DNA of 32,000 nucleotides from Bellilinea caldifistulae. Its GTDB lineage: Bacteria; Chloroflexota; Anaerolineae; Anaerolineales; Anaerolineaceae. The translations under genes and the position numbers were made by a program. The stretch is taken from positions 1 through 32,000 of the forward strand of contig NZ_LGHJ01000005.1 of the NCBI RefSeq assembly GCF_001306055.1. The letters run 5' to 3'. The notes beneath the pieces are model-generated. The model had not been told where the DNA came from and made no database searches. It saw only the letters and a list, made by a program, of their open reading frames with translations. Shown here in pieces: positions 9,810-32,000 of this stretch. The first letter of the stretch is position 1; every line of letters starts with the position of its first letter.

Positions 9810-9816
9810 AAAAGAC

Positions 9817-10986: not shown

Positions 10987-11020
10987 ATTTACCTCCACCT
11001 TGAATAAAAGTTATGATGTC

Positions 11021-12076
11021 TCAGGTTGTTTCTTCATGTGAATAAGGAATTTGAAATGACACTACAGTTCCACTGCCACCGATGCGAGAATCGATGTTGA
11101 AGTAGCCACCCAGCATCTCAACCCGTTCTTTGATTAATTTCAAGCCCAAACCCTTGCCGGCCATTGCCTTGGAAGGATCAAAGCCCTTTCCATCATCTTT
11201 TACCTGCACTTTAATCAATTGAGAATCCATGATGATCGAAACCTCTATCTTTAATTTTTGGGAGAGGTCGTTATTGTGCCGGGCGGCATTCCCGATGATT
11301 TCCTGAAGTGAACGGAATATCAAGACCTCAATATAGGGTTCCAGTCGCCTTTCGGCGCCCATTATATCGAGCTTAATATCAACGCCACTTTCATTTTGGA
11401 AGTTTTCCACATATCGCTTGAGAGTGGGAAACAACCCCAAATCATCCAGCATCATCGGTCTCAGATCCGTGATGAACAAACGGACTTTTTGGAAGGTGTT
11501 CAAGGCGGCGGCCTTTAGATTCTCCAATTCCTGTTTTGCGCGAGTAGGGTCAACATCAAACAAACGACTGACAATTTCCATTTGAACCACAAAGTTCGAT
11601 AATGCCTGAGCCGGGCCATCGTGCATTTGTCTGGAGAGGCGCTGGCGTTCCGCCTCTTGAGCATCAATCAATTTCTGCAACAATACGGTTCCGCGTTCTT
11701 CCCCCGCTCCACCCATCTCCTCTTCTAAAAATCGGTTGGTTTTTTCAATTAAGTCCAATAATTCTTCAAGATATTGTTTTTTGGTTTGTAATTTTTCTAA
11801 TTGACTCCTTTTTTGAACCATTTGATTGAGGGATTCAATGGTTTCCTCATAAGTTCTGACAATATCCTGCCTTGGCAAACTGTCAATTTGAGCTTTAACA
11901 AAGTTCAATTGGGTAATTTTTTGCTTGTTAAGTTCGTTCAGCTTGGCGATTTGTGAATTTTGTAAATTGATCAAAGTATCATTGTCATCCAGATCTTTTG
12001 TGAATTGAGCCTTTTTTTCCCTTAAAAAGGTAAGATATTCTTCCCGTGTATCCTCATTCTTCAGATGATTGCTCAT
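11021..12076 (-). CDS. cytoplasmic DegS-like sensor histidine kinase (coiled coil + HisKA_3 + HATPase_c)
   Basis: No TM segment and a long heptad-like N-terminus. H-box ERQRLSRQMHDGPAQALSN. N-box GNAARHN. DDGKGF and GLGLKLIKERVEMLGG. Confidence 0.8.
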   Translation of the reverse strand: MSNHLKNEDTREEYLTFLREKKAQFTKDLDDNDTLINLQNSQIAKLNELNKQKITQLNFVKAQIDSLPRQDIVRTYEETIESLNQMVQKRSQLEKLQTKKQYLEELLDLIEKTNRFLEEEMGGAGEERGTVLLQKLIDAQEAERQRLSRQMHDGPAQALSNFVVQMEIVSRLFDVDPTRAKQELENLKAAALNTFQKVRLFITDLRPMMLDDLGLFPTLKRYVENFQNESGVDIKLDIMGAERRLEPYIEVLIFRSLQEIIGNAARHNNDLSQKLKIEVSIIMDSQLIKVQVKDDGKGFDPSKAMAGKGLGLKLIKERVEMLGGYFNIDSRIGGSGTVVSFQIPYSHEETT

Positions 12077-12142
12077 GGAGGCCCTCTCTTTTGTACAACT
12101 TGAAAATCATGCCAAGTATAGCACAACCTGTTGTTGCTGTTC

Positions 12143-13795: not shown

Positions 13796-15267
13796 GGCCG
13801 ATTCCCGAATTCGTAAATATCTAAATCACCGATTTGTGTGTGACTTAATTGTATGTATTGGCTGGAAAGAGCCTCAAGAACCGGATGCTTAAAGCCCCTC
13901 TCTGAAAATTCCTGAACGGCTTTCCTGAAAACGACAAAGAAGAATCGTTCTTTTTCCCGAATTATTCGGGAGTAATCTTCTATCGGGTAAATCCCCATCG
14001 CTTGTTGGGAAACCAGCGCCAGTGTATCGTTGGGAGAGCCGGGTTCATCTGCGAGAAAAGCCGCATCGTGATTTTCATCATAAAAGCGCATCGGGAAGTA
14101 GCTGAGTTTATTGTCATGCAAAATGAACACATCCCGGTTTTGGGGTAAATTGAGATATTCCACAGCCTGACGGAAAGGCGAGCGAGGAAATTCAGCATAG
14201 GTATAAAAAGAAGGTAAAGATATTGCAGCTGTCACAAGAAAACCCCCTAAAAGAAATGCTCCTATTCCTCGTTTCCATCTCAAGACAATGATCCTTGCCG
14301 CTACAATGGAATACATAACACTGGAGAGAATGAAAACCCTTGTAACAAAAACCGGCTGCATGAAGTAGGAAATCACAAATAACAGAATGGGTAATCCGAA
14401 CAGAATCAGGTTTAACAGCATTATGGCTGACCTGTCACTCCGATCTTTCCACAATTCCCAGAGTACAACAAAAAACAGCTGTGCGCTGAAAACGGCTGCT
14501 ATTGGCAACAATGCACCTTTCAAGGGTAGATTGGCATGAAATAATATAACAGCCTGAAAAATCTCCACAATCCCAGGCCTGGGGGTCCAGAAAGCTCTCT
14601 GAACTTTGGCAATTTGACCAGGCAACAAGAAAGCCCATGGTAAATAAAACAATCCAATAACCAGCTGAGCTTTAATTATTTGTATCTGGTCCTCCCATCT
14701 TTTTTTCCAAAGAAGATAGACGTTTCCCCAAATTAAACCGAACCCCGCTAAGGCATGGCTATACATCGCCACGACACCGCTCAAGACTAACCCAACCCAA
14801 AAACCCGCCTTATCCTGTTTTTCTTCAAATATTCGGTAAAAAAACCAGTAATAACCTAGCTGCCCCGCCAGCATTAAAGCGTACATCCGTAAATCCTGGC
14901 TGTGATAAATTTGCAGCGGCGATATCGCCAGCAATATACCGGCGGTGATACCAGTGCGCCACCCAAACATCCGCCGGGCAAGGTCAACCGCGATAAACCA
15001 GCCGATTATGGACAAGCCAACACTGAACAACCTCAAGAAAACCAGATTATCATTCAATCCCTGCCAAAAATGAAGCAAAAAATAATACAAAGGCGGCATC
15101 GTGTCTGCTGCCGTTCCTTTGATAATATTCCCCAAATCCTGACGGGCAAGGAAAATACTGAAGGCATCATCATACTGGATTTCACGGCTTCTGATCCCCG
15201 TCAGCCGTAATCCAACGGCTAGCAGTAGAGCAAGTGTCAAGTAAGACCGCTCACTTCCTTTCGACAT
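13792..15267 (-). CDS. GT-C fold glycosyltransferase, GT39/GT83 (PMT_2/ArnT)-like
   Basis: REIQYDDAFSIFLA acidic loop after TM1, a multi-TM core and a C-terminal soluble domain of about 135 aa. Confidence 0.65.
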   Translation of the reverse strand: MSKGSERSYLTLALLLAVGLRLTGIRSREIQYDDAFSIFLARQDLGNIIKGTAADTMPPLYYFLLHFWQGLNDNLVFLRLFSVGLSIIGWFIAVDLARRMFGWRTGITAGILLAISPLQIYHSQDLRMYALMLAGQLGYYWFFYRIFEEKQDKAGFWVGLVLSGVVAMYSHALAGFGLIWGNVYLLWKKRWEDQIQIIKAQLVIGLFYLPWAFLLPGQIAKVQRAFWTPRPGIVEIFQAVILFHANLPLKGALLPIAAVFSAQLFFVVLWELWKDRSDRSAIMLLNLILFGLPILLFVISYFMQPVFVTRVFILSSVMYSIVAARIIVLRWKRGIGAFLLGGFLVTAAISLPSFYTYAEFPRSPFRQAVEYLNLPQNRDVFILHDNKLSYFPMRFYDENHDAAFLADEPGSPNDTLALVSQQAMGIYPIEDYSRIIREKERFFFVVFRKAVQEFSERGFKHPVLEALSSQYIQLSHTQIGDLDIYEFGNRP

Positions 15268-15269
15268 AT

Positions 15270-16520
15270 CTACGAAGATGCCCTGGATTCGAGCGTTTCA
15301 AACCACAATCGCGGTGGTCTAACAGCCCACCAGCGATTCCAATACAGGACGAGGATCAAAAACAGGGGTAATGGCAGGAACATCACCGGGCTTTGAATGG
15401 GTTGGTAATCCATCTCTACTGTGGTTAGAAAAATCTCCCAGATTCCGACAAAAAGTAAAAACATGGTAGCCACGGAAAGAACTACTCCCCGATTCCGCCA
15501 ACGCTCAACCCAAACAGCGAAAGTTAAAACAACCCCCGGATAAGCCACGATGAAATTACCAGGATCGGTTTGCAACCCGACCCAAAAGCTGACAGTTATA
15601 GTGAGACACGCGGTCCACAAAAAAGCTCGAAATTCACTCTTTCGATTGATGAACCATTCCACCATCAAAATCAACACCACCATCCCGGAAACCACTCGGC
15701 CAAGGCGCTCACCTCCCTGTGGGATAATTGCCCCTAATGCAGCCGGCAAAGTACCCGGAGGATTATAAGATGGATAGCGTAGAACTTCCCGTAAGTTTTG
15801 GATGATCCAATCCGGGATCAAAATTAACGCCAAACCAATTAGGAAGCCCATACCAATCAAAAACCAGATGATAATTTTCCAGCGGCGATGGCTGGCCGCC
15901 CAAAATAACACAAACACAATCAACAACAAAACAACCTGCGGTTTGATGGTGATTAAAGCCATGAGAATCCCGGCCAGCTCATCATTACCGGCGCGGACGG
16001 CAAGTAATATCCCCACTATGGCGAGGGCGATTAAAATGACCACATTCCCCAGAATCACTGGTCTTAAGGCATGATACCAGAAGACCGAAAACAATAAAAA
16101 CAAGGCCAGAATGAGCGGTTTTGGCCGCCATCGTACCAACCCTAAAGACAAAAACGCCATAAGGATCAAACCGGATTCCAAAACCGCCATCCAAACCGCA
16201 CGGGCAAGGTTGTAATCTGCTATCAGCGCAAACGGCAAAAAGACGAGAATCGAATAGAGAGGATAAGCAACCCGCAATTCATGTTCACCCGCCCTGGCTG
16301 GCCGGCCATACACCATATTTTGAATGCGAAGTGCCACCTCATCAGAATACGGGCTCAACCCATCTTCAAAAAAGGATTTCGTTCCCATCCAGTGAACTAA
16401 AAAATCATTGCCCCCTGGATTTTGAGCCGTATAACGATAATTCCCCCACACCAACAGACCAAACAAACCACTTCCGAGCACAAAAAGCACTATAATTGCC
16501 AATGAGGAATTTCGTGACAT
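15270..16520 (-). CDS. polytopic membrane protein, GT87/DUF2029-like glycosyltransferase candidate
   Basis: NPGGNDFLVHWMGTKSFFEDGLSPY after TM1. About 12 TM helices and no soluble domain. It stops 2 nt before the next gene's start. Confidence 0.5.
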   Translation of the reverse strand: MSRNSSLAIIVLFVLGSGLFGLLVWGNYRYTAQNPGGNDFLVHWMGTKSFFEDGLSPYSDEVALRIQNMVYGRPARAGEHELRVAYPLYSILVFLPFALIADYNLARAVWMAVLESGLILMAFLSLGLVRWRPKPLILALFLLFSVFWYHALRPVILGNVVILIALAIVGILLAVRAGNDELAGILMALITIKPQVVLLLIVFVLFWAASHRRWKIIIWFLIGMGFLIGLALILIPDWIIQNLREVLRYPSYNPPGTLPAALGAIIPQGGERLGRVVSGMVVLILMVEWFINRKSEFRAFLWTACLTITVSFWVGLQTDPGNFIVAYPGVVLTFAVWVERWRNRGVVLSVATMFLLFVGIWEIFLTTVEMDYQPIQSPVMFLPLPLFLILVLYWNRWWAVRPPRLWFETLESRASS

Positions 16521-16579: not shown

Positions 16580-17383
16580 ATGAAGACAAAAATTTCACTT
16601 GCCCAATTTGAAGTTCAAATTGGAAAGCCTGAGCAAAATTTTAAAACAGCACTGCCCTATATTGAACAGGCTGCCCGCTCAGGCTCTTCAATCATTTTAC
16701 TGCCCGAATTATGGAGCAGTGGTTACGATTTACAAAACGGTTCAACATATACCCAAATTAATCAGGAAATTATTGGCGAGTTAAAGTCACTTTCCGAACA
16801 ATATCATCTTTCTATTGGGGGGTCTTATATCACTTGCGACGAAGTGGGCTGCCGCAACACTTTCTTGATCACCTTGCCGGATAAAAGTGTCACTCCTCCT
16901 TATCACAAAGTCCATTTATTCCGTCTACTAGATGAAGATCAGTTTTTTCAGCCGGGTGACCAATATCTCTCCGTTGATTTTAACTGGGCTAAAGCCGGTT
17001 TGGCCATCTGTTATGATCTTCGTTTTCCGGAATTGTTCCGTTTTTATTCAAGGCAAGGTGCATCTTGTGTTTTGATCGTTGCCCAATGGGGTGCCAAACG
17101 TGCCGAACACTGGCGCACATTTCTCAAAGCCAGAGCCATCGAAAATCAATTGTTTGTGGCGGGTGTCAATGCAATTGGAATGATTGGAAATACCCCACTG
17201 GCCGGGTACAGTGCAGTCGTATCTCCGTGGGGAGATGTACTGGCAGAAGGGTCTTCCAATCAAGAAGAATTAATCACCGTAGAAATGAACTTTGATTTAA
17301 TTGATGAGGTAAAACAACACTTGAATTCAGGACAGGATCGCCGTGATGATTTGTATAAGGAATGGTATAACCGGTTTCCTTAA
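16580..17383 (+). CDS. carbon-nitrogen hydrolase (nitrilase superfamily, omega-amidase/Nit-like)
   Basis: E-K-C triad contexts: ILLPELWSSGY, YHKVHLF, GLAICYDLRFPE. Confidence 0.85.
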   Translation: MKTKISLAQFEVQIGKPEQNFKTALPYIEQAARSGSSIILLPELWSSGYDLQNGSTYTQINQEIIGELKSLSEQYHLSIGGSYITCDEVGCRNTFLITLPDKSVTPPYHKVHLFRLLDEDQFFQPGDQYLSVDFNWAKAGLAICYDLRFPELFRFYSRQGASCVLIVAQWGAKRAEHWRTFLKARAIENQLFVAGVNAIGMIGNTPLAGYSAVVSPWGDVLAEGSSNQEELITVEMNFDLIDEVKQHLNSGQDRRDDLYKEWYNRFP

Positions 17384-18900
17384 TCCGACTGGTCCCCCTC
17401 TCGTGCAACGACAATACTGACCTCATCCTCGTAGAGTACTCTCCAACCCTTTTTGATTAATTTCTCTACTACGGGTTGTTGGGGCTCAATCAAAAACCAG
17501 CCGATTTTCCATTTTTCTACGGCTTCTTCCCACCCCTCACCGGTGTTGAGAATGTTCAGCCAATCCTTCAGAATTTCATCGCCAAATAGGTCGGTTCTCC
17601 CGTCAACAAAGACCGGTGTTTCAGGCATATTCCAGATCAAATAACCTCCCCAACCGTAACTATTCCATAATCTGCCGTCCGGAATTCCCTTCTCTTTCAA
17701 ATACGCTACGGCTTTTTGAGGATAGAACCGAGCCTCATAGGCACTAACCACCACTGGATGAGTCACATAAAACCATTTTCCAATGGCAACCATTCCCAGT
17801 AATCCGATTATCGTCATATTGATGACCCGGCGAAAGTTGAATGGAAAAACAACCTGGTTTCGACTCATCCGATTACCATGTTGATTAAAGAAATTTTTCA
17901 AATTTTTTGTAATATCAACGAAGATCTCAGGCAAATGATTACCAACGGTCAGGGTAGCAAAAATCGCAAACGGTGCAAAATTGCGTTTTGCAACCAGGGC
18001 TAAATAAGTAAATCCCAAAAAGCCGACAATTTCAAAACCACTGACCGTCTTTTTTGAATATGCGAATGAAAAGATAACAATAAAAAGTAAAACAAGAAAT
18101 GGCTGCATTGCCAGTTGATGAAAATCAGGTGACGCCCACTCATCAATCAAGGATTGCAAGGTTTGCACCCCTACGGTCTTAAAAGGAACAATCAGGGTAT
18201 TTAAACCATTCGGATTGATTAAGACACCTGACAAAGCCACCAGTATCCAAATGAAATATTTTTTCAGCCTCCCAAATCGCTTCCCTTCATTCGAGGGTAT
18301 CAAGAGAGAATCCAGGATCTCGCCCGCCAGCAGAAAAAGTAGAAGAAAAATTCCCAAACCATATCCACCGTGAAGATTGGACCAAAGAACAAACAAAGTA
18401 AAAAACCATATCGTACCCTGAAAACCGCCATGCTTCCGATATGTTCGAATCAGCCCCAATAAAATTACGAACATCAATAACGAAAATATTTGCGGGCGTG
18501 GTGACCAGACGAAAGAACAGATGATCGCAGCCAAAATCACAAACCACGCTTTAAATAAGGCTCCGCCCTCCATGATTTTATATAATATTCCCATACTGGC
18601 TACCGCTGTAATCGCTACACATAAACCCAACCCCCAAAAACCGGCATTTTCAAAAAACCAATAAAGAACAACCTCACCCAGCCAAGAATGATTAATCCAG
18701 TTCTCCCCTGCCCGGGTATAAGAAAACACATCCTTTAGCAGTGGACTTCCGTTCTGAATTGTCCATTGACCTGCCCTGAGATGCCACCACATGTCGCTGT
18801 CCAGCGGCACACGCACAGCCATGATAAACACCAGCAACAGGGTAATGCAAAACAGCAAATTATCGAGGTTTTTTTGATCTTTTTCCAAAAGGTTGATCAT
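17380..18900 (-). CDS. polytopic membrane protein, GT-C-like, with a C-terminal soluble domain
   Basis: PLDSDMWWHLRAGQW acidic loop after TM1. About 12 TM helices. C-terminal domain of about 115 aa. ATGA overlap with the upstream gene. Confidence 0.45.
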   Translation of the reverse strand: MINLLEKDQKNLDNLLFCITLLLVFIMAVRVPLDSDMWWHLRAGQWTIQNGSPLLKDVFSYTRAGENWINHSWLGEVVLYWFFENAGFWGLGLCVAITAVASMGILYKIMEGGALFKAWFVILAAIICSFVWSPRPQIFSLLMFVILLGLIRTYRKHGGFQGTIWFFTLFVLWSNLHGGYGLGIFLLLFLLAGEILDSLLIPSNEGKRFGRLKKYFIWILVALSGVLINPNGLNTLIVPFKTVGVQTLQSLIDEWASPDFHQLAMQPFLVLLFIVIFSFAYSKKTVSGFEIVGFLGFTYLALVAKRNFAPFAIFATLTVGNHLPEIFVDITKNLKNFFNQHGNRMSRNQVVFPFNFRRVINMTIIGLLGMVAIGKWFYVTHPVVVSAYEARFYPQKAVAYLKEKGIPDGRLWNSYGWGGYLIWNMPETPVFVDGRTDLFGDEILKDWLNILNTGEGWEEAVEKWKIGWFLIEPQQPVVEKLIKKGWRVLYEDEVSIVVAREGDQSD

Positions 18901-20582
18901 TGCGCGCTATCAGTTTGAATAAATAATTTTTCGAAATCAACTATCCGTATAGGATTTGACAGGTTGTAATAAATGACAAAGTCACCAATCTGTTTCTCGT
19001 TCCATAAAATTTTTCTCTCTTGGAGCAAACTACGCAGTTTTTGATCCAGGGCAGGATTTCGAGTGGTTATCAAAGCCACCTTGTCCGATTCCTCAACCAT
19101 TTGTGTATAGAGCGGGTAACGATCATCGCGCCGCGTATATCTTAAATCTGGATGATACGGGAATCGGGGACTGAAAATGATCTCTTCGTGTGTAAGAAAC
19201 GCCAGCGGATAAGCAACCCAGTAGTTCGTATAACCCCTCAATTCGCCATTTTCCCGCAGATATTGAATTACTTCCGGCATATCTCCCATATCCACCCGTG
19301 CAGGGGCGTAAAATTGGGTTGTCAAACCCGGTGGATTGGATGCTGTACATTGCAAATTTCCCCACAGGTTGAAAAGTGCAATCAACCCGGCCAGACTTAA
19401 ATATGCAGGCTTCTTTTTACCCCATTCATCCAGAACTTTTCCCCCCATCAGACTTAATACCAGCCAAACGGGTAAAAAATATCTTCCACTTGGGTCAACA
19501 CCAAACGAAGTAAACACAAAACCGAGAATGAAAGTAAAGATAACCCCTTCAATCACTTTGACTTGAAACGAACGAGGCGATCTGATCCAATCCCAAAAAA
19601 TTTTCCCCCATAAAAGTAATGTGAATGGGATCAATGGCAATCCCAGCCAGAAAACATCCCACGGAGGACGCAACCCGATTGCAGCAGGCAAACCCAACAC
19701 TACAAAGTAGACCATATGATTAATCGTTCTTAACCAAAAAGGCTCACGCTCCACTGCCACAGCCGCACCGAATAATTCGTGAATCAGTGAGCCTAAGCCA
19801 TTTTGAAATGCAAAAAACCACCAGGGAAATGAGCCCACCAGTAATCCCACCAAAACCAGGGTTATCCTCCAGGTAATGATTCTTAAGTTTTTAATCCGGA
19901 AGGTACGAAGTAAAATTCCGATACCTGCCGGAACACTGTAAACCATAGTCAACCCATTCACCCATAATCCAAACCCACACAAAAAACCCCATAACAACCA
20001 CAAAATAACGGAGTGGCTCCCTAGTCTAAATGTACGCATTCCTGATGCACGATTAACTTCTGTATCGGCTTCACCACCGCTTTTACTAACTCGAAAACTG
20101 ATTTCTGAACTTGCTTCTGAATATTTCAACAAGTAAAATGTTGTTATCAAAATTAAATTCCCGATCAGCAAGGCTTCGCCATATCCCCCTAAACTGACCG
20201 TAGTATATAGCGTCGTATTGACCGGCGGTATTGCCAGTAATAAGGTAGCGATCAAACCGGCACGGAACGATCCAAAAAATTGATAACCGACCCAAAAACC
20301 TGTCAATATCGTTAAAAGATATAAAATTACCTGAACAAGCCTGATTCCAAAAACCGATTGACCAAAAGCCTTAAAAAAAAATGCTACAAGGAAGGCATCT
20401 AAACTGCCCATGTAGGCCTGTCCGTAGAAAAAGATGGGCTTTTCCCCCGCCAATATGTGGCGAGCCATTAACCCCACCACTGCTTCATCTGCATTGAAGG
20501 GAAAAACATTTAAAACAAGCAGGGAAACTTTCAGAGATAGCCCCAGTAAAATCACGAAGGCCAAAAGCAGGTATCGCTTCAT
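18897..20582 (-). CDS. GT-C fold glycosyltransferase, ArnT/PMT (GT83/GT39)-like
   Basis: FPFNADEAVVGLMARHI after TM1 (typical DE loop), a multi-TM core and a C-terminal soluble domain of about 150 aa. Confidence 0.65.
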   Translation of the reverse strand: MKRYLLLAFVILLGLSLKVSLLVLNVFPFNADEAVVGLMARHILAGEKPIFFYGQAYMGSLDAFLVAFFFKAFGQSVFGIRLVQVILYLLTILTGFWVGYQFFGSFRAGLIATLLLAIPPVNTTLYTTVSLGGYGEALLIGNLILITTFYLLKYSEASSEISFRVSKSGGEADTEVNRASGMRTFRLGSHSVILWLLWGFLCGFGLWVNGLTMVYSVPAGIGILLRTFRIKNLRIITWRITLVLVGLLVGSFPWWFFAFQNGLGSLIHELFGAAVAVEREPFWLRTINHMVYFVVLGLPAAIGLRPPWDVFWLGLPLIPFTLLLWGKIFWDWIRSPRSFQVKVIEGVIFTFILGFVFTSFGVDPSGRYFLPVWLVLSLMGGKVLDEWGKKKPAYLSLAGLIALFNLWGNLQCTASNPPGLTTQFYAPARVDMGDMPEVIQYLRENGELRGYTNYWVAYPLAFLTHEEIIFSPRFPYHPDLRYTRRDDRYPLYTQMVEESDKVALITTRNPALDQKLRSLLQERKILWNEKQIGDFVIYYNLSNPIRIVDFEKLFIQTDSAQ

Positions 20583-20682: not shown

Positions 20683-21969
20683 ATGATTCAAAACCTGAAG
20701 AAAAAAGCCTTTCTTTTTGTTGTTATTTTTCTTTTCAGCCTTTTATATTTTATTGGAATTCGTGAAGTTCCCTTTCACCCAGATGAAAGCACCCAAATTT
20801 TCATGAGCCGGGATGTTGATTTTTTCTTCTCCCAACCTTCCTACCTTTCCTATAATCCAAACAATTCTGAAGATTTGCGTCAGCGATACCGATTGCTTGA
20901 TCCACCTGTCAGCCGCTGGTTTATCGGCATGTTCGGCTTGATTTTTAAGGTCCCCCCGTTACCGGCCGATTGGGATTGGGGAAAATCGTGGGAAGAAAAC
21001 GTACAATCGGGTGCTTTGCCTCCCCCATCCACCCTTTTGATTTCTCGATTAGCAGTCAGTTTCGTCTTTCCGTTGCTTCTTTACTTTGCTTATAAAACGG
21101 GCGAAGTGCTGGCCGATAAGAAAACTGCCTGGCTTAACCTTGTTTTTACAGCCTTGAATGCCTTAATCCTGCTCCATACTCGCCGGGCAATGGCAGAAAG
21201 TCTTTTAGCCTTTTTTTCTTGCCTTTCTCTTTATCTTCTGGTTTCAGGGAAAAAGCCCGTTTGGCTGCTGGCAGTTCCAATCGCATTGGCATTTAATGCC
21301 AAATACTCAACCGCTCCACTGGTTTTGGCTGGATGGATTAATTGCCTGATGAGTTCTTCAAATTCGCCTTTCCACCATCGTTTGAAACCGGTGCTGCTTT
21401 ATTCAATTATTTTTATCCTGACTACATTTTTACTCAATCCGGTTTTATGGTCATCCCCACTGGATGCTTTGAAAGCTGCCGCCAAAGAAAGACAAAATTT
21501 ATTAGCCGCTCAAACGACTGCAATTGGAGGTTTCAATCCCTCTCAAACACCCCAAACCGTTCCAGAACGTTTATTGGCACTAATCGCCCAGATTTATATC
21601 GCCCCACCAGCGGTTGCTGATGTTGGAAACTATCTTTCTGCTACAGAACTCCCCGCCCAAATTTACTTCTCCCGCCCATGGAATAATCTAACCAATGGAT
21701 TTTTCAAGGGAGGCTTCTTTCTTTCCCTGACCATCATTGGCCTGTTCTGGATGATCCGCCGGCATTGGAGTTCAATATGGAAATTTTCAAATCCGGCCAC
21801 TCTTTTTCTGCTGACTTTTATCGTTCAATTCGCTGGAATTATCGGTGGAATTCCACTCGCTTTTCAGAGGTACTATCTACCCCTTATGCCTTACATCACC
21901 TTCTTCATTGGATACGCCATAAGCCAGGGGATTGATCTTGGTAAAAACACAATCAAACGTTCGATTTAA
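20683..21969 (+). CDS. GT-C fold glycosyltransferase, PMT_2-like, no C-terminal soluble domain
   Basis: VPFHPDESTQIFMSRD acidic loop after TM1. About 11 TM helices. Confidence 0.55.
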   Translation: MIQNLKKKAFLFVVIFLFSLLYFIGIREVPFHPDESTQIFMSRDVDFFFSQPSYLSYNPNNSEDLRQRYRLLDPPVSRWFIGMFGLIFKVPPLPADWDWGKSWEENVQSGALPPPSTLLISRLAVSFVFPLLLYFAYKTGEVLADKKTAWLNLVFTALNALILLHTRRAMAESLLAFFSCLSLYLLVSGKKPVWLLAVPIALAFNAKYSTAPLVLAGWINCLMSSSNSPFHHRLKPVLLYSIIFILTTFLLNPVLWSSPLDALKAAAKERQNLLAAQTTAIGGFNPSQTPQTVPERLLALIAQIYIAPPAVADVGNYLSATELPAQIYFSRPWNNLTNGFFKGGFFLSLTIIGLFWMIRRHWSSIWKFSNPATLFLLTFIVQFAGIIGGIPLAFQRYYLPLMPYITFFIGYAISQGIDLGKNTIKRSI

Positions 21970-25378: not shown

Positions 25379-26127
25379 AAGCTGAGCATGACTTGATTAA
25401 ATAACCCGGGCTGATCAATAGGTAAGGCATGACCACCGCCCTCGATGATCACATGACCGCCGTTAGGTAACAATTCAACTAACCTTTTTTGCAAGTACAA
25501 TGGTATGGTTGTATCCTTTGCTCCGCTAACAACCAGCACCGGGTTTGTGATCCTTTTGGCCAATTCCCGCCCATCAAACCGGGTTAATGCCAGCATGGCC
25601 TGGCGATACACCTTTGGATCAGCCTGTTTAATGCTTTGAGTAAGCATTTCCCGAAAAAGTCTTTTGTCATCGCTTGGGAAAATTCTACTGGCAACCAATT
25701 CAGCCTGAGCTTGTGGAGAAAGGAAAAACGCCCGCACCCCTCTGCGAACAAAATACCGAAACTCACTCCATCTGCGGGGACGTAACACAGCAAAAGTGTT
25801 GACCAGCACCGACATCAGCACAAGATCAGGATATTCTGCTGCAAGTTTCAACCCGATAACTCCCCCCATTGAAATCCCCATTAATCCCATTTTTTTGATC
25901 CCCGCGGAACGCAGAATTTGGACCAACTCTTGGGTAACCCGATCAAAATTCCACTGATCACCCTCAAAAATGGATTTTCCAAAGCCCGGTAAATCCGGTG
26001 CAATTACCCGATAACCAGCATCCAAAAGCGCAGGTATTTGAAAATACCATGACTCGGCATTTGCCCCCAAACCATGAAGCAGGAGAATTGGAAAACCATC
26101 CTGTCGGCCTTCACTTATAATATTCAT
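25303..26127 (-). CDS. alpha/beta-fold hydrolase
   Basis: LLLHGLG oxyanion region, nucleophile elbow GISMGG, C-terminal GGGHAL. The last 25 codons overlap the convergent upstream gene. Confidence 0.8.
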
Positions 26128-26186
26128 AGAAGTTCTCCCTTTGAGGAAAATTTCACAATTTTGTTCATGAATTTTTCTTATAAGTT

Positions 26187-26192
26187 TATAAT
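26187..26192 (+). promoter_or_regulatory. candidate -10 box (TATAAT) for murA
   Basis: Perfect TATAAT 25 nt upstream of the murA ATG. Only a weak -35 (TTCATG or TTGTTC at non-ideal spacing). Confidence 0.3.
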
Positions 26193-26217
26193 ACTATCAA
26201 CACCTCAGGAGGAACAA

Positions 26218-27498
26218 ATGGAAAAATTTATTATAGAAGGCGGACATCCTCTGCATGGAGAGGTAACCCCAGCAGGCAATAAAAATGCAGCACTTCCATT
26301 GCTGGCAGCCTGTTTATTAACCGATGAACCGGTAATCCTGAGAAACGTTCCAGATATTCTGGACGTTCGTACAATGCGAGCCTTACTCGAAAGTCTTGGT
26401 GTTGAAATTAAACCACTGGATACCCACACATGGCAGGTTCAAGCCAAAGTCATCCGTCCTGCCGACCTGGATCCCGATTTGACTCGTAAAATTCGTGCTT
26501 CTATTCTTCTGGCAGGACCGATGACCGCCCGTATGGGTGAATTGCGGCTGCCTCCGCCGGGAGGAGATGTCATTGGCCGTCGAAGAGTGGATACCCATAT
26601 CCTCGCATTGACCAAACTTGGCGCCAGGGTAACTTACGACCGTTATTTTTACTTTTCTGCAAGCGGTTTAACCGGTGCGGATATTCTGCTGGACGAAGCC
26701 AGTGTAACGGCAACTGAAAACGCAATTATGGCTTGTGTAACCGCCAGAGGTAAAAGCGTAATCCGTAATGCTGCTTCCGAACCACATATTCAGGAATTGT
26801 GCCACTTTTTGAATACCCTGGGTGCAAAAATTGAAAATATCGGCTCTAATACCTTACATATCACCGGGGTCGAGAAACTTCATGGGGGTGAATTTACTAT
26901 TGGTCCAGATTACTTAGAGGTAGTCAGTTTCATTGGGGCTGCCGCGGTGACGAAAGGTGAAATTTGGATCCGCAACGCTGGTAATCAGTATCTGGATATG
27001 ATACGTTTGGTATTTGGACGATTAGGAGTTCACTGGGAAACCCATGGAGATGATATTTTCGTCCCTTCAAAGCAGAAACTGGAGATTGAACCTGATCTGG
27101 GAAACGCAATTCCAGAAATCAGCGTGATGCCCTGGCCCTCTTTTCCAACCGATTTGATGAGCATCGCCCTTGTCGTCGCTACCCAATCAAAGGGGACAGT
27201 TCTCTTTCATGACTGGATGTACCCAAGTCGCATGTTTTTCACCGATAAGCTGGTGGGAATGGGTGCCCAAATCGTACTTTGTGACCCACACCGCTGCATC
27301 GTGCAAGGCCCCACGGAATTGTATGGTGAAAAAATGGAAAGTCCGGATATCCGCGCCGGAATGGCTCTGGTACTCGCCGCTCTTTCTGCCAAAGGCACTT
27401 CGGTGATCCGTAACATTGGTCAAATTGACCGTGGTTACGAAAAAGTAGATCAGAAACTCGCAGCCCTTGGGGCCAAAATTCAGCGAGCGATCGAATAA
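26218..27498 (+). CDS. murA: UDP-N-acetylglucosamine 1-carboxyvinyltransferase MurA (Asp at the fosfomycin-target position)
   Basis: MEKFIIEGGHPLHGEVTPAGNKNAALPLLAA, LPPPGGDVIGRRRVDTH, and a C-terminus IDRGYEKVDQKLAALGAKI. AGGAGG lies 5 nt before ATG 26218. The track's 48-codon 5' extension overlaps the divergent gene. Confidence 0.92.
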   Translation: MEKFIIEGGHPLHGEVTPAGNKNAALPLLAACLLTDEPVILRNVPDILDVRTMRALLESLGVEIKPLDTHTWQVQAKVIRPADLDPDLTRKIRASILLAGPMTARMGELRLPPPGGDVIGRRRVDTHILALTKLGARVTYDRYFYFSASGLTGADILLDEASVTATENAIMACVTARGKSVIRNAASEPHIQELCHFLNTLGAKIENIGSNTLHITGVEKLHGGEFTIGPDYLEVVSFIGAAAVTKGEIWIRNAGNQYLDMIRLVFGRLGVHWETHGDDIFVPSKQKLEIEPDLGNAIPEISVMPWPSFPTDLMSIALVVATQSKGTVLFHDWMYPSRMFFTDKLVGMGAQIVLCDPHRCIVQGPTELYGEKMESPDIRAGMALVLAALSAKGTSVIRNIGQIDRGYEKVDQKLAALGAKIQRAIE

Positions 27499-27503
27499 CC
27501 ATC

Positions 27504-27536
27504 AAAAAAAATCCCGGTGAGCCCGGGATTTTTTTT
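27504..27536. terminator. bidirectional rho-independent terminator shared by murA (+) and trxA (-)
   Basis: A-tract 27504-27511. Stem AATCCCGG (27510-27517) pairs with CCGGGATT (27523-27530). Loop TGAGC. T-tract 27529-27536. Confidence 0.85.
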
Positions 27537-27555
27537 GAAAGTTTGTATTTTTTTT

Positions 27556-27915
27556 TCAATTGTTCTTGGCGGAAGCGCTTTGAACAACTTCCAAAAATTG
27601 ATCCAGAATCTCACGCAGCATTCCCTCGGGCAAAGCACCCACCTGACGATGTACCACCTTTCCGTTGGCAACAAATAACATCGTAGGAATACCCTGAACG
27701 CCATAACGCATTGCCCATTCGGGGTTCTCGTCCGTATTAACTTTTGCGACAATTAATTTTCCAGCATACTCCGCAGCAATTTTATCGAGAATTGGAGCAA
27801 CCATTCGGCAAGGACCACACCATGGCGCCCAAAAATCAACAATCACCGGCAGATTTGACTGAAGAACCGTTTTTTCAAATGCCGCATCGGTTACATGCAC
27901 TGGTTCTTTAATCAT
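27556..27915 (-). CDS. trxA: thioredoxin
   Basis: VDFWAPWCGPCRMVAP active site, 119 aa. Confidence 0.93.
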   Translation of the reverse strand: MIKEPVHVTDAAFEKTVLQSNLPVIVDFWAPWCGPCRMVAPILDKIAAEYAGKLIVAKVNTDENPEWAMRYGVQGIPTMLFVANGKVVHRQVGALPEGMLREILDQFLEVVQSASAKNN

Positions 27916-27943
27916 TCCTCTCTCCTCTCAATGAGTTTAGTAT

Positions 27944-27952
27944 AGTATACCA
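27944..27952 (-). promoter_or_regulatory. candidate extended -10 promoter element for trxA
   Basis: The minus strand reads TGGTATACT (TGn + TATACT) about 29 nt upstream of the trxA ATG. The -35 is poor. Confidence 0.3.
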
Positions 27953-28004
27953 TTTGATAAAAATTCATGTAGAATTTGATGCATTTTCACCACAAAAGTT
28001 GCAC

Positions 28005-28055
28005 AAAAAACTCAGACCTCTCATTAAGGTGTGAAGTTGCCGGGAGAGGTCTGAG
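28005..28055 (-). terminator. rho-independent terminator of hsp20
   Basis: 12-bp stem (28011-28022 ctcagacctctc pairs with 28044-28055 gagaggtctgag). On the minus strand it is followed by TTTTTT (28005-28010). It starts 35 nt after the hsp20 stop. The loop is long, 21 nt. Confidence 0.6.
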
Positions 28056-28090
28056 ACAATTTCTCTCGTCTTCCTGATCACCGGTGATAA

Positions 28091-28531
28091 TCACTTAACT
28101 TTTACCGAGATCGTCTTGGGACGAACCTCCTCCACCTTGGGCAATATCAGCGTAAGTATACCATTTTCATACTCGGCTTTGGCTTTGTCCACATTGACAG
28201 TCACCGGCAACTGGACAGAACGGGTGATCATGCCGCTCCGACGTTCGCGGATATGATAGATGGCATCTTCATTGACCTTTTCTTCTTTAACTTCACCACG
28301 AATAGTGAGCACTCCATTTGCAACCGAAATATGGATATCTTCCGGTTTTACACCCGGCAGAACAGCTTTGACGACCACCTCATCATTGGTCTGATACATA
28401 TCCAGCGCCATCCACTCATATCCGCGCCAGCCTTCTAATTGGCGAGTTAACATGTTGTCGAAAACTTGATCCATCATTGAACGCAGTGTTGCCATTTCGC
28501 GGAAGGGATCAAAAACGGTCAGGTTTGCCAT
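28091..28531 (-). CDS. small heat-shock protein, Hsp20/alpha-crystallin family
   Basis: Alpha-crystallin domain AVLPGVKPEDIHISVANGVLTIRGE and ENGILTLILPK, 146 aa. Confidence 0.92.
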   Translation of the reverse strand: MANLTVFDPFREMATLRSMMDQVFDNMLTRQLEGWRGYEWMALDMYQTNDEVVVKAVLPGVKPEDIHISVANGVLTIRGEVKEEKVNEDAIYHIRERRSGMITRSVQLPVTVNVDKAKAEYENGILTLILPKVEEVRPKTISVKVK

Positions 28532-28556
28532 AATCCACCTCCTTCAGAATCAATAA

Positions 28557-28595
28557 ATTCTTATGCTCTTATTTAACATCGAAGAACATAAGAAT
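28557..28595. promoter_or_regulatory. inverted repeat in the hsp20 upstream/leader region
   Basis: ATTCTTATG (28557-28565) pairs with CATAAGAAT (28587-28595) with 21-nt spacing. It lies 26-64 nt upstream of the hsp20 ATG. Confidence 0.3.
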
Positions 28596-28636
28596 ACTGC
28601 ATAAAAATTATTAATGTTTTGTTGAAAAAATGCAGA

Positions 28637-29377
28637 CTAATCGGATGATTTCTTGGACGCCTCTCGCGAGAAGTCCACGAAGCGATAGCCCACCCCTCTT
28701 TCAGTGAGAATATACTTGGGGTTTGCCGGATCTTTCTCCAATTTTTGACGGAGATAGTTGATATACAATCTCACATAATGTGGCTCATCTCGATATTCGT
28801 AGCCCCACACCTTTGAAAGCAATTGGTCATACGTCATGACCCACCCTGCATTTTGAACCAGATGATACAGCAGCCGATATTCTGTCGGACGTAATTTGAC
28901 CAATTTGCCATCCACCCACACTTCTCGTCTGCCAAAATCAATTTTCAAACGATCGTCAATCTCATAGACTTCCTTGGAACCAAAACCGCTGGCTTCTGTT
29001 CGACGCAAAACAGCCCGAACCCGGCTAACCAGTTCCCTCGGACTGAAAGGTTTGGTTACATAGTCATCCGCACCCAATTCCAATCCACGCACCCGGTCAT
29101 CCTCTTCCCCCTTCGCCGTCAACATGATCACCGGCACATTACTGATCTCCCGAATCATTTTCAAAACTTCAAAGCCATCCAGATCCGGCATCATAACATC
29201 CAAAATTACGACATCCGGCATGGCATCTCTGAGTTGATGAATTGCTTCGAGTCCACGGTGCGCTTCCACCACCCTGAATCCATCATGTTCCAGATTCAAA
29301 CGGATGAAGCGTGCCATTCGTTCTTCGTCGTCCACAACGAGAATGACGCGATTCTTAAAATCTTCATCTTGAGACAT
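28637..29377 (-). CDS. OmpR/PhoB-family response regulator (receiver + winged helix)
   Basis: VVDDEE, ILDVMMPDLDG (phospho-acceptor Asp context), MLTAKG, VTKPF. C-terminal RLLYHLVQNAG and ERGVGYRF. Confidence 0.9.
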   Translation of the reverse strand: MSQDEDFKNRVILVVDDEERMARFIRLNLEHDGFRVVEAHRGLEAIHQLRDAMPDVVILDVMMPDLDGFEVLKMIREISNVPVIMLTAKGEEDDRVRGLELGADDYVTKPFSPRELVSRVRAVLRRTEASGFGSKEVYEIDDRLKIDFGRREVWVDGKLVKLRPTEYRLLYHLVQNAGWVMTYDQLLSKVWGYEYRDEPHYVRLYINYLRQKLEKDPANPKYILTERGVGYRFVDFSREASKKSSD

Positions 29378-29381
29378 GGGT

Positions 29382-29621
29382 TTATTCCCTTACGAAGGTT
29401 ATAATCTCTTCTTCCTCACTGGTCGGTAGAATTTCAATGAAGGTAATTCGACTCATCGGCCAAATCACCGTCGTAACATTCGGTTCAAGATAGTGTAAAT
29501 CCTTGCCATCCCTTTTTCTGGGATTTTTGAGGATAACTAAATTATCGGCGGGTGACGGTAAAGTGTCAACCTCACCAACGACGGGATCTTCATTTACAAT
29601 GTGGAGGATTAAGGTTGGCAT
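29382..29621 (-). CDS. 79-aa conserved-looking hypothetical protein (possible small beta/Sm-like fold)
   Basis: Intact ORF packed between the FHA gene (13-nt gap) and the response regulator (4-nt gap) on the same strand. No recognised motif. Acidic tail SEEEEIITFVRE. Confidence 0.55.
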   Translation of the reverse strand: MPTLILHIVNEDPVVGEVDTLPSPADNLVILKNPRKRDGKDLHYLEPNVTTVIWPMSRITFIEILPTSEEEEIITFVRE

Positions 29622-29634
29622 TGCACCGTTCCGT

Positions 29635-30168
29635 TTATTTGTGAATAATCAATTGAAATTTTAACTTTCCCAACGCAATGACATCCCCATGCTTGACCGG
29701 ATAATCAACATGGGGCACAATTTTCTGTCCATTGACCCGGGTACCGTTAGCCGATCCCAAATCCATGATGGCTACCCGCTGCGATCCAATTTTGATTGCT
29801 GCGTGAAGTCGGGAAACCCCTTGCGTGTACGCTTCAAATTCAGATAAATCAACGTCCGGTAAAATGGGCTGCCCTTCGGCAATTCGCCCCAACGAAAACT
29901 CTGTCCTTCCGCTCAGGTGTATGGTTCTCCCCGAATCAATCATATGCAGAGATACAACCGGCTCCGATCCTTCGGCTACTGCTGTTTCAATTTTCACCTC
30001 TGGTATCGGCGCGCTGGAAAAAACTGCGCTTCCATTCAAAATATCCGAATTGACTTTTTCGAGATTTTGAGTGGTCAGCGTATCAACAGAAGTTAACTGG
30101 GCTCCACATTCACTACAAAACAAAGCACCCGGCAACTCCTGGTGCTGACAATTAGGGCATCGAATCAT
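29635..30168 (-). CDS. zinc-ribbon + FHA domain protein
   Basis: CPNC-x12-CSEC N-terminal zinc ribbon. FHA core FSLGR...GVSRLHAAI...DLGSANGTRVNGQKI. ATGA overlap with the upstream gene. Confidence 0.88.
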   Translation of the reverse strand: MIRCPNCQHQELPGALFCSECGAQLTSVDTLTTQNLEKVNSDILNGSAVFSSAPIPEVKIETAVAEGSEPVVSLHMIDSGRTIHLSGRTEFSLGRIAEGQPILPDVDLSEFEAYTQGVSRLHAAIKIGSQRVAIMDLGSANGTRVNGQKIVPHVDYPVKHGDVIALGKLKFQLIIHK

Positions 30169-31640
30169 GACTCCCTCCTTGCCGGACTGGGCAATAAAAA
30201 CAACGCTCGTGTGCCATACTTAATCTTCTTATCCCCTTCTTTACTGAATGAATGGGTTCTCTGAATATGATCCGCCTCAACAAGAACCGTTTTCGCCAGT
30301 TCACGATCTCCCTGTGCAAGCAAATGCGTCGCCAAATGCTGCAAATGGCGCGTTGCTTTCCCAATATCTCCTGCCAATACTTCCAGCCGGGCCTTTTCCT
30401 GCAACCGATAGAGGGTAATCTTTGACATTGCTTGAAGGATGGAAGTAGGGGGTTTCTCCGTCTGCCAATTCTCTCTGGTCTGTCGGGTAAGATGGATCGG
30501 ATAACGGCCAAACGGATTCGCCAGGGATGGAACCTGCATTTGAATATGCCCTCTTAATAATTCAACCTCAATTTGGGTGCTGGAGAGAGGAGGTAGTTTG
30601 AATTCTAATATGATACTGGTTTTTTTTCCATACTCAATTGTACCCAAAGGTATGGGCGATTCATTGCCAAGTGGCGTTATATCCGGATGAATGCGAAATA
30701 CATAGCGGAGCTCGATACCTTCAGCCAAATTAAAAAACCATTCGATTTTTCTCGCGTAACTGACGGAAATTGATTTGATTTTATTTTCAATAAATTGGGT
30801 TAAGTCCTCATTACGGCTAACATAAATCGCATTTCCTCCGCTTAAAGCCGCAATCCGATCCAGGAAAATATCGTTCCATTCGTCCCCTATTCCCAGGGCA
30901 TTGATGGGCACACCTTCCTCTCTGGCCTGAGCGGCCAGATCAATGCAATTTTGTTCATCTCCGTAGGTATGCCCATCCGTAATTAAAATCAGCTGTTTAA
31001 TCATTCCTTCCCGGCTAAACCGTTGAATGAGGTCATAGCCGGTAGAAAGACCCTGGAAGATTTCTGTCGCCCCTCCAACCTGCAATTTACTGATCACACC
31101 ATCCACTGCCGCCGGATCTTCCAGCTCTTTCGGGGGCAAAATCACCTCAGCCCGATCACTGAATGCCACGATGGACAACCGATCCTTTGTTCTCAACTTC
31201 CTTGCCAGGTAGATGATATTTTGCCGCACCATGTCAATACGATCACCTCGCATAGAGTTAGACCGATCTACAACCAGGCAAACATGAATGGGTGGCAGGT
31301 CTTTGGGATCAGGTTGTTTGGGTGTGTCCAATTCCATCAGGACGTAAAAGAGTTGAGGCTCTTCCAACAATGGAATTTGTGACCGCCCGTAGGTGATCGA
31401 AATATTAACCGCCGGCAATTCTTTTAACTCCGCCGGGAGTTGTTCATCATAGGCTGTGCGTTTTTTAGGATTAGAAAGTACCTCGTAGGCTTCCTGGATT
31501 TGTAAAAACTTTTGTTTGGCAAATGGATCGGGATTAACATCCGGATGAAAACGTCGAGCAGCCTCGAAGTACGCCGTCCGGATTTCTTCCGCACTGGCAT
31601 TGAAAGGCAATTCGAGGACTTGATAAAAAGTCGTTTTCAT
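30165..31640 (-). CDS. J-domain / von Willebrand factor A (vWA) fusion protein with a beta-rich and helical C-terminal region
   Basis: J domain FYQVLELPFNASAEEIRTAYFEAARRFHPDVNPD...AYEVLSNPKKRTAYD carries the HPD motif. vWA has a complete MIDAS: VVDRSNSM (DxSxS), GGATEI (Thr), LITDGH (Asp). Confidence 0.85.
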   Translation of the reverse strand: MKTTFYQVLELPFNASAEEIRTAYFEAARRFHPDVNPDPFAKQKFLQIQEAYEVLSNPKKRTAYDEQLPAELKELPAVNISITYGRSQIPLLEEPQLFYVLMELDTPKQPDPKDLPPIHVCLVVDRSNSMRGDRIDMVRQNIIYLARKLRTKDRLSIVAFSDRAEVILPPKELEDPAAVDGVISKLQVGGATEIFQGLSTGYDLIQRFSREGMIKQLILITDGHTYGDEQNCIDLAAQAREEGVPINALGIGDEWNDIFLDRIAALSGGNAIYVSRNEDLTQFIENKIKSISVSYARKIEWFFNLAEGIELRYVFRIHPDITPLGNESPIPLGTIEYGKKTSIILEFKLPPLSSTQIEVELLRGHIQMQVPSLANPFGRYPIHLTRQTRENWQTEKPPTSILQAMSKITLYRLQEKARLEVLAGDIGKATRHLQHLATHLLAQGDRELAKTVLVEADHIQRTHSFSKEGDKKIKYGTRALFLLPSPARRES

Positions 31641-31650
31641 TCTTTAACTT

Positions 31651-32000
31651 CTAGAAATACTGAACTAGAACCACACTGATATTGTCTGGACCTCCAGCAA
31701 GATTAGCGGCATCCACAAGATTTTTACAGGCAACGGAGGGATTGCGGGCACTGGCAATGATTTGGAATATCTCAGCTTCCGGCACCACTCCCCATAAGCC
31801 ATCGCTACAAATCATCAAATACCCTGGATGAGGCATTGGTAAGGATTGAATATCTGGACGGAACGGCTCGGCCTGACCGAGGGCACGATAAAGTACATTT
31901 CGATTGGGATGGACGGAAGCCTCCTGTTCGGTGATTTGACCCAATTCAACCAGGCGGCGCACCAGCGAATGATCCTGGGTTATCAACTGCATTCTACCAT
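31651..32000 (-). CDS. PP2C-family Ser/Thr protein phosphatase (C-terminal part; gene continues beyond the window end)
   Basis: ITQDHSLVRRLVELGQITEQEASVHPNRNVLYRALG, LMICSDGLWGVV, GGPDNISVVLV. The frame stays open upstream of the track's Met at 31992. Confidence 0.85.
   Translation of the reverse strand, partial: GRMQLITQDHSLVRRLVELGQITEQEASVHPNRNVLYRALGQAEPFRPDIQSLPMPHPGYLMICSDGLWGVVPEAEIFQIIASARNPSVACKNLVDAANLAGGPDNISVVLVQYF

Follow-up and report, generated by a model that had tools for sequence, protein, structure and literature searches.

At the end of a 32,000-nt stretch of the Bellilinea caldifistulae genome (contig NZ_LGHJ01000005.1, positions 1 to 32,000 of the forward strand; hereafter the window) lies a group of minus-strand genes belonging to a six-gene operon, a real unit that is conserved in Anaerolineae (filamentous Chloroflexota) and probably encodes a Ser/Thr-phosphorylation switch. 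An open reading frame (ORF) listing of positions 26000-32000, together with Pfam and NCBIfam searches, reproduced the five genes, domains and junctions reported in an initial annotation made from the sequence alone. In the direction of transcription, these genes encode the C-terminal ~116 residues of a PP2C phosphatase interrupted by the window end (31651..32000; NCBIfam Stp1_PP2C, 1.8e-34, and Pfam PP2C), a 491-aa scaffold combining a J domain and a vWA domain (J-vWA, 30165..31640; Pfam DnaJ, 5e-21, and VWA, 1e-20), a 177-aa reader combining a zinc ribbon and an FHA domain (ZnR-FHA, 29635..30168; Pfam FHA, 5e-14, and Zn_Ribbon_1), a 79-aa protein termed s79 (29382..29621), which has no Pfam model and is predicted by AlphaFold2 (AF2) to form an Sm-like barrel, and a 246-aa response regulator of the OmpR/PhoB family (28637..29377; Pfam Response_reg, 2e-33, and Trans_reg_C, 5e-25). 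From PP2C to the regulator, the successive junctions are a 10-nt gap, a 4-nt overlap, a 13-nt gap and a 4-nt gap.

The initial annotation had counted five genes and had reasoned that FHA and PP2C imply a Hanks-type kinase outside the window. Upstream extension on the 101.8-kb Logan contig L001, which carries the exact J-vWA protein, bore out the second point and corrected the first: the unit comprises six genes, and its first one, directly upstream of PP2C and beyond base 32000 of the window, encodes a 605-aa Hanks kinase (L001 7237-9054). The complete PP2C is a Stp1-type protein of 303 aa (L001 9079-9990). The kinase motifs VAVK, RDxKxxN and DFG are intact and, according to Pfam run on the full protein, the C-terminal half is a PQQ/BamB-type beta-propeller. 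No transmembrane or hydrophobic segment was found in the kinase sequence, which is why we consider it cytoplasmic. Kinases with PQQ-type beta-propeller repeats have been noted in Deinococcus and Streptomyces (PMC1262709). A second, stand-alone Hanks kinase (357 aa, L001 2286-3359, minus strand), ~30% identical to that of the operon, is encoded ~4 kb upstream of the operon beside a ribulose-phosphate 3-epimerase gene, and 11 of the 18 related loci described below have it in the corresponding position.

Conservation was assessed by a tblastn census over 18 related Anaerolineae genome loci. Relatives of J-vWA ranged from 92-95% identity in Bellilinea metagenome-assembled genomes (MAGs) down to 33% in other Anaerolineae. 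The genes for kinase, PP2C, J-vWA, ZnR-FHA, s79 and regulator occur in this order and on one strand in all 18 loci, down to the lowest of these identities, while the flanks diverge, so that the arrangement is not due to chance; the proposal of a tightly packed single unit is thereby substantiated. Identity to the B. caldifistulae protein was 67-98% for the regulator, i.e. the most conserved gene of the operon, 50-98% for the kinase, 47-97% for s79, 45-96% for PP2C, 33-95% for the scaffold and 30-97% for the FHA protein. Across genera, the locus keeps its place between glnA and trxA-murA. One Anaerolineales MAG (L018) has an extra operon gene between FHA and s79 (9801-11018, plus strand), encoding a 405-aa Hanks kinase-FHA fusion (Pfam Pkinase, 2e-52; FHA, 6e-19).

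The vWA scaffold and its FHA reader

The AF2 model of J-vWA (mean pLDDT, i.e. predicted local distance difference test, 88; predicted template modelling score, pTM, 0.83) comprises a J domain (residues 1-73), a vWA domain (118-292), a beta-sandwich formed by residues 79-105 and 294-389, and a four-helix C-terminal domain (399-479). When it was compared with the PDB using Foldseek, the top matches were a vWA protein of Catenulispora (4fx5), ArnB (8s05_A/B) and the ArnB paralogue vWA2 (5a8j), followed by Sec23/24; E-values of the top matches were 1e-19 to 1e-23 and target-normalized TM-scores 0.66-0.72 (8s05_A: 6e-23 and 0.71). Outside the J domains, ArnB was also the best PDB match by sequence. 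The metal-ion-dependent adhesion site (MIDAS) residues D125, S127, S129, T192 and D222, which form the DxSxS, T and D elements, are invariant in the scaffold alignment. The scaffold thus displays the three-domain ArnB-type architecture, i.e. a vWA domain with intact MIDAS, a beta-sandwich and a C-terminal helical domain.

In the adjacent reader, a zinc ribbon of the form CxxC-x10-CxxC at the N-terminus is joined by a variable linker to an FHA domain at the C-terminus. Residues C4, C7, C18 and C21 and the GR and GVSRxHA motifs are conserved across 25 aligned readers, and NGT nearly so, the exception being the copy of locus L008; there, the FHA gene (11473-11847) matches residues 1-126 only and then diverges, probably through a frameshift or assembly error and not as a biological truncation. 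ArnA structures (5a8i and 8s05_C) are among the PDB sequence matches of ZnR-FHA, whose architecture is of the ArnA type, a four-Cys zinc module preceding an FHA domain with phospho-Thr (pThr)-binding residues.

The last helix of the scaffold contains the motif K-x-(I/V)-(K/R/H)-(Y/F)-(G/S)-T-(R/K)-x-L (K471-L480, codons 30201..30230, minus strand). In all 24 scaffolds, with or without the J domain, its Thr477 and the Leu at position +3 are unchanged, and both also occur in the truncated ORF of L029. The pattern pT-x-x-L/I is said, after work by Durocher and colleagues in 2000, to be a common FHA preference. As a Thr with Leu at +3 fits this preference, the motif is the likely FHA docking site, and the invariant Thr of KYGT(R/K)xL is the candidate for the phospho-Thr read by FHA.

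By sequence, the N-terminal region of the scaffold (31422..31640, minus strand) places it among J-domain proteins: Pfam DnaJ matches residues 5-65 (5.3e-21), the best PDB sequence matches of this region are J domains, and the HPD tripeptide (H32, P33, D34) that the initial annotation had reported intact is not only present but invariant in 36 homologues. Recruitment of DnaK/Hsp70 is therefore predicted. The protein does not group with class A or B DnaJ, as NCBIfam DnaJ models match residues 1-70 only, far below cut-off, and vWA, beta-sandwich and helical bundle make up the remainder in place of a G/F-rich region and C-terminal substrate-binding domains. The J domain is absent from the otherwise homologous scaffolds of three contigs that were retrieved with s79 (L021, L024 and L027; see below). 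The J-containing scaffold of L026 (6875-8356) and the J-less scaffold of L027 (7136-8431), where the vWA start lies just 16 nt after the PP2C stop, are 69% identical over residues 78-493, a contrast whose sequence pattern indicates recent gain or loss of the domain. The J domain is thus an optional, lineage-specific add-on. Our full-text literature searches found no description of a protein combining a J domain and a vWA domain.

Among described systems, the closest architecture was that of ArnA/ArnB of Sulfolobus acidocaldarius (8S05, 5A8I, 5A8J; PMC6509490, PMC12852372), in which a zinc-finger-FHA reader and a three-domain vWA scaffold with intact MIDAS are likewise adjacent, and which also involves Hanks-type kinases and a phosphatase; phosphorylation of the scaffold, known in ArnAB, would by analogy also occur here. 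In the ArnAB model, zinc-finger tethering is combined with phosphorylation-dependent clamping of FHA on the C-terminal helical domain (PMC12852372, PMC6509490), and its authors describe the same structural family and note ArnB-like folds in bacteria (PMC12852372). The two systems differ in several respects. The Sulfolobus kinases ArnC and ArnD are encoded by separate genes and the phosphatase is PP2A, whereas kinase and PP2C belong to the operon in the present case; ArnB has multiple redundant Thr residues where the present scaffold has a single invariant C-terminal candidate motif; and the bacterial system has an N-terminal J domain, an Sm-like subunit and an OmpR regulator in place of archaellum-gene output.

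Three further systems share parts of this organization. The Deinococcus radiodurans operon DRA0331-DRA0334 (bioRxiv 10.64898/2026.01.23.701218) is also bacterial and encodes vWA, Ser/Thr protein kinase, FHA and PP2C proteins; going by its description, it is set apart by a different gene order, by a PP2C carrying its own KI-FHA domain and by the lack of any reported J domain, Sm-like protein or response regulator. PpkA/PppA/Fha1 of the Pseudomonas aeruginosa type VI secretion system (T6SS; PMC5995506, PMC1262709) likewise forms a pThr switch of Hanks kinase, PP2C and FHA with a vWA domain in the pathway; that vWA domain is located inside the transmembrane kinase PpkA and the output is T6SS assembly, whereas here the kinase is cytoplasmic and T6SS genes are absent. 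Finally, class C (type III) J-domain proteins such as DjlA, CbpA-like proteins and AtcJ (PMC6715715) similarly fuse an isolated HPD-containing J domain to a specialised targeting module that guides DnaK to a particular client or site; in J-vWA, unlike these, the module is an ArnB-type vWA scaffold under proposed Ser/Thr-kinase control. The statement in the initial annotation that this is not a described system must consequently be divided. The core of kinase, PP2C, vWA and ZnR-FHA has ArnA/ArnB architecture and its theme is known, while the three additions, i.e. the J domain, the Sm-like protein and the transcription factor, were not found described. No description of an FHA/vWA/PP2C operon in Chloroflexi was retrieved from the literature either.

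The Sm-like protein and the OmpR-type regulator

The search with the B. caldifistulae s79 yielded 363 homologues and that with a second subfamily 898; a profile search of 1.84 billion representatives gave 265 clusters at 50% identity, mostly of ~80 aa. Most matches were nameless and, where a source name was given, it was always from Chloroflexota (Anaerolineae, Aggregatilineales, Chloroflexia and Ktedonobacterales). The family is characterized by an NPRxRDGK loop, an invariant acidic EEE stretch and a C-terminal F-x-R-E/D. No Pfam family was matched at E <= 1 by 40 of its members and no NCBIfam match was obtained, in agreement with the initial annotation, in which the protein had been called unannotatable. 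The AF2 model (pLDDT 88.6) has five strands with a helix at the C-terminus, and it lacks the N-terminal one seen in typical Sm proteins. Of the 50 best Foldseek matches in the PDB, almost all were Sm/LSm proteins (probability ~1.0, E 0.01-0.1, TM-score 0.5-0.7). Membership of the Sm/LSm/Hfq group is thus suggested at the level of the modelled fold but not by the Sm1/Sm2 profiles (LSM, Hfq), and s79 represents a conserved family without Pfam model for which an Sm-like beta-barrel is predicted. Full-text searches found no description of this family.

The genomic context of s79 was extended by twelve exact-protein look-ups of divergent members, two of which led to short contigs without recognisable module genes. 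In seven of the ten further contigs, s79 adjoins kinase, vWA or FHA genes of the module. The order is propeller kinase, PP2C, J-less vWA, FHA, s79 and GT9 in L021, and the same in L024, except that no PP2C was found and the kinase is split into two ORFs; kinase, PP2C, J-vWA, FHA, s79 and CpXC in L026, and likewise in L027 with a J-less vWA; and kinase, PP2C, J-vWA, ZnR-FHA, s79 and an epimerase in L028. The propeller kinase is directly followed by s79 in L025, and ZnR-FHA by s79 in L023 (Ktedonobacterales). A vWA C-terminus, FHA, s79 and an OmpR regulator are found in L029/L030 (Aggregatilineales), and s79 with the OmpR regulator only in L022. The recurrent unit in these contigs therefore consists of propeller kinase, PP2C, ArnB-like vWA, ZnR-FHA and Sm-like protein. 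This does not fit the earlier description of s79 as inserted between reader and regulator, since it follows FHA in contigs that have no regulator and follows the kinase itself in L025.

Several additional observations were made on this family and its surroundings. A longer subfamily (110-165 aa; P0235, P0258, P0260, P0262, P0263, P0265, P0266) has the same barrel, a long acidic low-complexity linker and a terminal LxRR(V/I)R(E/D) helix; two of its contexts were short contigs without recognisable module genes. Some of the ORFs P0232, P0236, P0256, P0185 and P0206 join a beta-propeller C-terminus directly to s79, and others join a receiver N-terminus to the s79 C-terminus or s79 to the start of the regulator. 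These joined ORFs may be frameshift or assembly artefacts; they nevertheless place s79 independently beside kinase and regulator. In L027, FtsW/RodA and FhaA_N-domain genes (10757-13558) are found 1.5-4 kb downstream on the opposite strand, recalling the actinobacterial fhaA-pstP-rodA-pknB division cluster.

The regulator follows s79 in the 18 related loci, L001, L022 and L029/L030, and is a lineage-specific add-on that is present in some lineages only. As read from its translation, the receiver has all canonical residues (D16/D17, D60, T87, K109), which supports its assignment to the OmpR/PhoB family; the best NCBIfam models were RpaB (227, cut-off 330) and MtrA (226, cut-off 300), both below cut-off. 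Across the examined stretches of 21 kb and 32 kb, no histidine kinase of the type that partners OmpR regulators was detected. The only histidine kinase found, of the HisKA_3 type (351 aa, window 11021-12076, minus strand), is located ~16 kb away, and none of the scanned ORFs next to it encodes a response regulator. HisKA_3 kinases are known as partners of NarL-type rather than OmpR-type regulators. The description of a canonical OmpR-type regulator whose operon lacks a histidine kinase therefore stands. Full-text searches found no response regulator wired to a module of this kind.

Proposed switch and alternative readings

We lean towards the view that the operon encodes a phosphorylation switch whose core is a bacterial equivalent of the ArnB/ArnA pair of archaea. 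By analogy with that pair, the cytoplasmic kinase would sense a ligand or partner via its PQQ-type beta-propeller and phosphorylate the vWA scaffold in its C-terminal helical domain, with the Thr of KYGT(R/K)xL as the prime candidate, and PP2C would remove this phosphate. Tethered by its zinc ribbon, ZnR-FHA would clamp the phospho-Thr through FHA and thereby tighten an initially loose complex, in the manner of ArnAB. Speculatively, s79 could act as a further core subunit or adaptor, its acidic EEE stretch engaging the scaffold MIDAS or the protein binding the propeller; a Glu-MIDAS contact has been suggested for ArnAB (PMC12852372, PMC6509490). Still more speculatively, s79 might in this lineage bridge the switch to the OmpR regulator. 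In Anaerolineales and Aggregatilineales the output would be this regulator, sequestered or altered in activity by the switch, while a distant histidine kinase would carry out the normal phosphorylation of its Asp; such dual control would be plausible. Where present, the J domain might recruit DnaK to remodel or reset the complex, which would render the switch sensitive to chaperone availability; this step, too, is among the more speculative ones. Taken to its full extent, i.e. a phosphorylation-gated Hsp70 co-chaperone switch in which Ser/Thr signalling and chaperone availability jointly control an OmpR-family regulator, the proposal is tentative and on balance doubtful.

Several points weigh against this switch. 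The likeness to ArnA/ArnB is confined to architecture, with a structural identity of 14-16% and phmmer E-values of 2.9e-8 (vWA region) and 1.6e-4 (FHA region). AF2 places Thr477 inside the last helix, so that its phosphorylation would require local unfolding, as has likewise been proposed for ArnB. The receiver is fully canonical, and the regulator could be run by a distant histidine kinase and only be co-transcribed. The genes downstream of the module vary by lineage (GT9, CpXC, epimerase, regulator), and there is consequently no universal output. Finally, a role of s79 as kinase substrate was discarded, as no Ser or Thr is conserved across the family.

Should the switch control the regulator, it would constitute hard-wired cross-talk between Hanks kinases and two-component systems, and with the Hsp70 arm a meeting point of three systems, Hanks kinase, Hsp70 and two-component signalling, of which we found no bacterial description in the literature. 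To our knowledge, ArnA/ArnB has been studied experimentally only in Sulfolobales; a complete ArnA/ArnB-like pair in bacteria, with kinase and phosphatase in one operon, would offer a genetically compact study system. The presence of s79 with the module in most contigs examined raises the possibility that current models of vWA/FHA signalling lack a component, and the variants with and without J domain or regulator provide a natural experiment on the attachment of Hsp70 recruitment and transcriptional output to a pThr switch.

The initial annotation had noted hsp20 and trxA downstream of the regulator and had put forward a phospho-Thr-gated proteostasis or stress module. In this reading, J-vWA would target DnaK and the OmpR regulator would drive hsp20 and trxA as a stress regulon. 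We consider it unlikely. The hsp20 gene (146 aa, 28091..28531, minus strand; Pfam HSP20, 7e-19) is located 105 nt downstream of the regulator gene and trxA (119 aa, 27556..27915, minus strand; thioredoxin, 4e-32; TIGR01068 above cut-off) a further 175 nt downstream. Together with the invariant HPD of the J domain, their frequency speaks for the link, as 11 of the 18 loci have hsp20 after the regulator (directly in ten, one gene further in L015) and 13 have trxA. However, hsp20 is missing from the other seven (L003, L008, L011, L014, L016, L018, L019) despite an intact operon, including L003, which has 86% J-vWA identity and retains trxA and murA, and the module exists without the J domain (L021, L024, L027) and without the regulator (L021, L023-L028).

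The intergenic regions are also relevant here, since hsp20 and trxA each have a terminator-like hairpin in front. The regulator-hsp20 spacer contains a 13-bp hairpin with a U-rich tract (28557..28595, minus strand; dG -22 kcal/mol, z -2.4), which probably serves the six-gene operon as its intrinsic terminator or attenuator. It lies 25-45 nt before the hsp20 ribosome-binding site, a proximity that makes hsp20 a possible target of regulated read-through, and the element could be a plain terminator or a read-through, possibly temperature-sensitive, element controlling hsp20. Equivalent hairpins with different stem sequences occur in L007, L012 and L013 (z -2.9 to -4.5), and the spacer folds into a 13-17 bp hairpin with U-rich tail in every locus tested; at the equivalent positions in L002-L017, pairing is kept and the stem sequence varies between clades. 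The alignment-wide consensus fold is weak (-1.7 kcal/mol). A protein operator of CIRCE/HAIR type was rejected for this inverted repeat, as variable sequence with conserved pairing is better explained by an RNA hairpin. Downstream, hsp20 has its own terminator (12-bp hairpin and U6, ~28005-28055), identified by eye and folding because it falls outside the loop limit of our scan, and trxA has its own promoter-like site (TCTACA-18-TATACT with extended TG). The counts of the promoter and terminator scan were not above shuffled expectation, so its matches serve as pointers only. The region upstream of hsp20 yielded no direct-repeat site of the OmpR type, and an Rfam search across the whole operon region gave nothing credible, with one sub-threshold snoRNA match inside coding sequence. 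On the basis of their uneven occurrence, the hsp20 terminator, the trxA promoter-like site and the hairpins between the units, hsp20 and trxA are variable or syntenic neighbours outside the conserved unit and at most read-through targets, which leaves the proteostasis link weak and makes it the least supported element of the initial annotation.

It is also improbable, in our judgement, that the regulator, perhaps with s79, is co-transcribed with the module and nothing more, its function belonging to an ordinary two-component pathway with a distant histidine kinase. Such a pathway would account for the canonical phospho-acceptor residues of the receiver, for the s79-regulator pair of L022, which has no kinase module, and for the seven contigs in which the module lacks a regulator (L021, L023-L028). 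It accounts less well for the s79-regulator junction, which is 4 nt or overlapping, with an order that all 18 genomes share even at scaffold divergences of up to 67% and that recurs in Aggregatilineales, and with the regulator being the most conserved gene; such persistence is unusual for unrelated genes.

More unlikely still is a post-transcriptional output, with s79 as a true Sm/Hfq-like RNA-binding protein and the regulator secondary. The Foldseek result, with Sm/LSm proteins at probability 1.0, points in this direction, as does the fact that s79, not the regulator, accompanies the module in most contigs. The matches are nonetheless of modest significance (E 1e-2 to 1e-1, TM-score 0.5-0.7), no Pfam LSM or Hfq match was obtained even at E <= 1, and a C-terminal helix takes the place of the Sm-typical N-terminal one. 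The best single match was the LSm domain of Edc3. This domain is a protein-binding module.

The switch proposed above is equally to be set against an anti-phage or conflict system of the TerY-P type, with J domain or regulator as effector arm, which we regard as very improbable: TerY-P, a stand-alone defence module (PMC10542128), does share a linked vWA, PP2C and Hanks kinase and a predicted phosphorylation switch (Anantharaman et al. 2012 as cited in PMC10542128), and the operon kinase does match the PADLOC PD-T4-6 kinase models, but these matches cover the generic kinase domain only, the PP2C match is generic as well, no defence family is matched by scaffold, FHA protein or s79, genes for a nuclease or another toxic effector are absent, and the locus is syntenic across genera instead of lying in a variable island. 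Moreover, the TerY-P kinase as defined in PMC10542128 has a C-terminal zinc ribbon or OB fold and not a beta-propeller, and TerY-P is placed by that account in tellurite-resistance, restriction or defence loci, with no ZnR-FHA reader in the description given there. The defence reading was accordingly discarded.

Elsewhere in the window, four ORFs of 428-561 aa (12143-13795, 17380-18900, 18897-20582 and 20683-21969) had no Pfam match at E <= 1e-5. They interleave with PMT_2 and GT87 membrane glycosyltransferases (13792-16520) and may form an uncharacterised envelope-glycosylation cluster.

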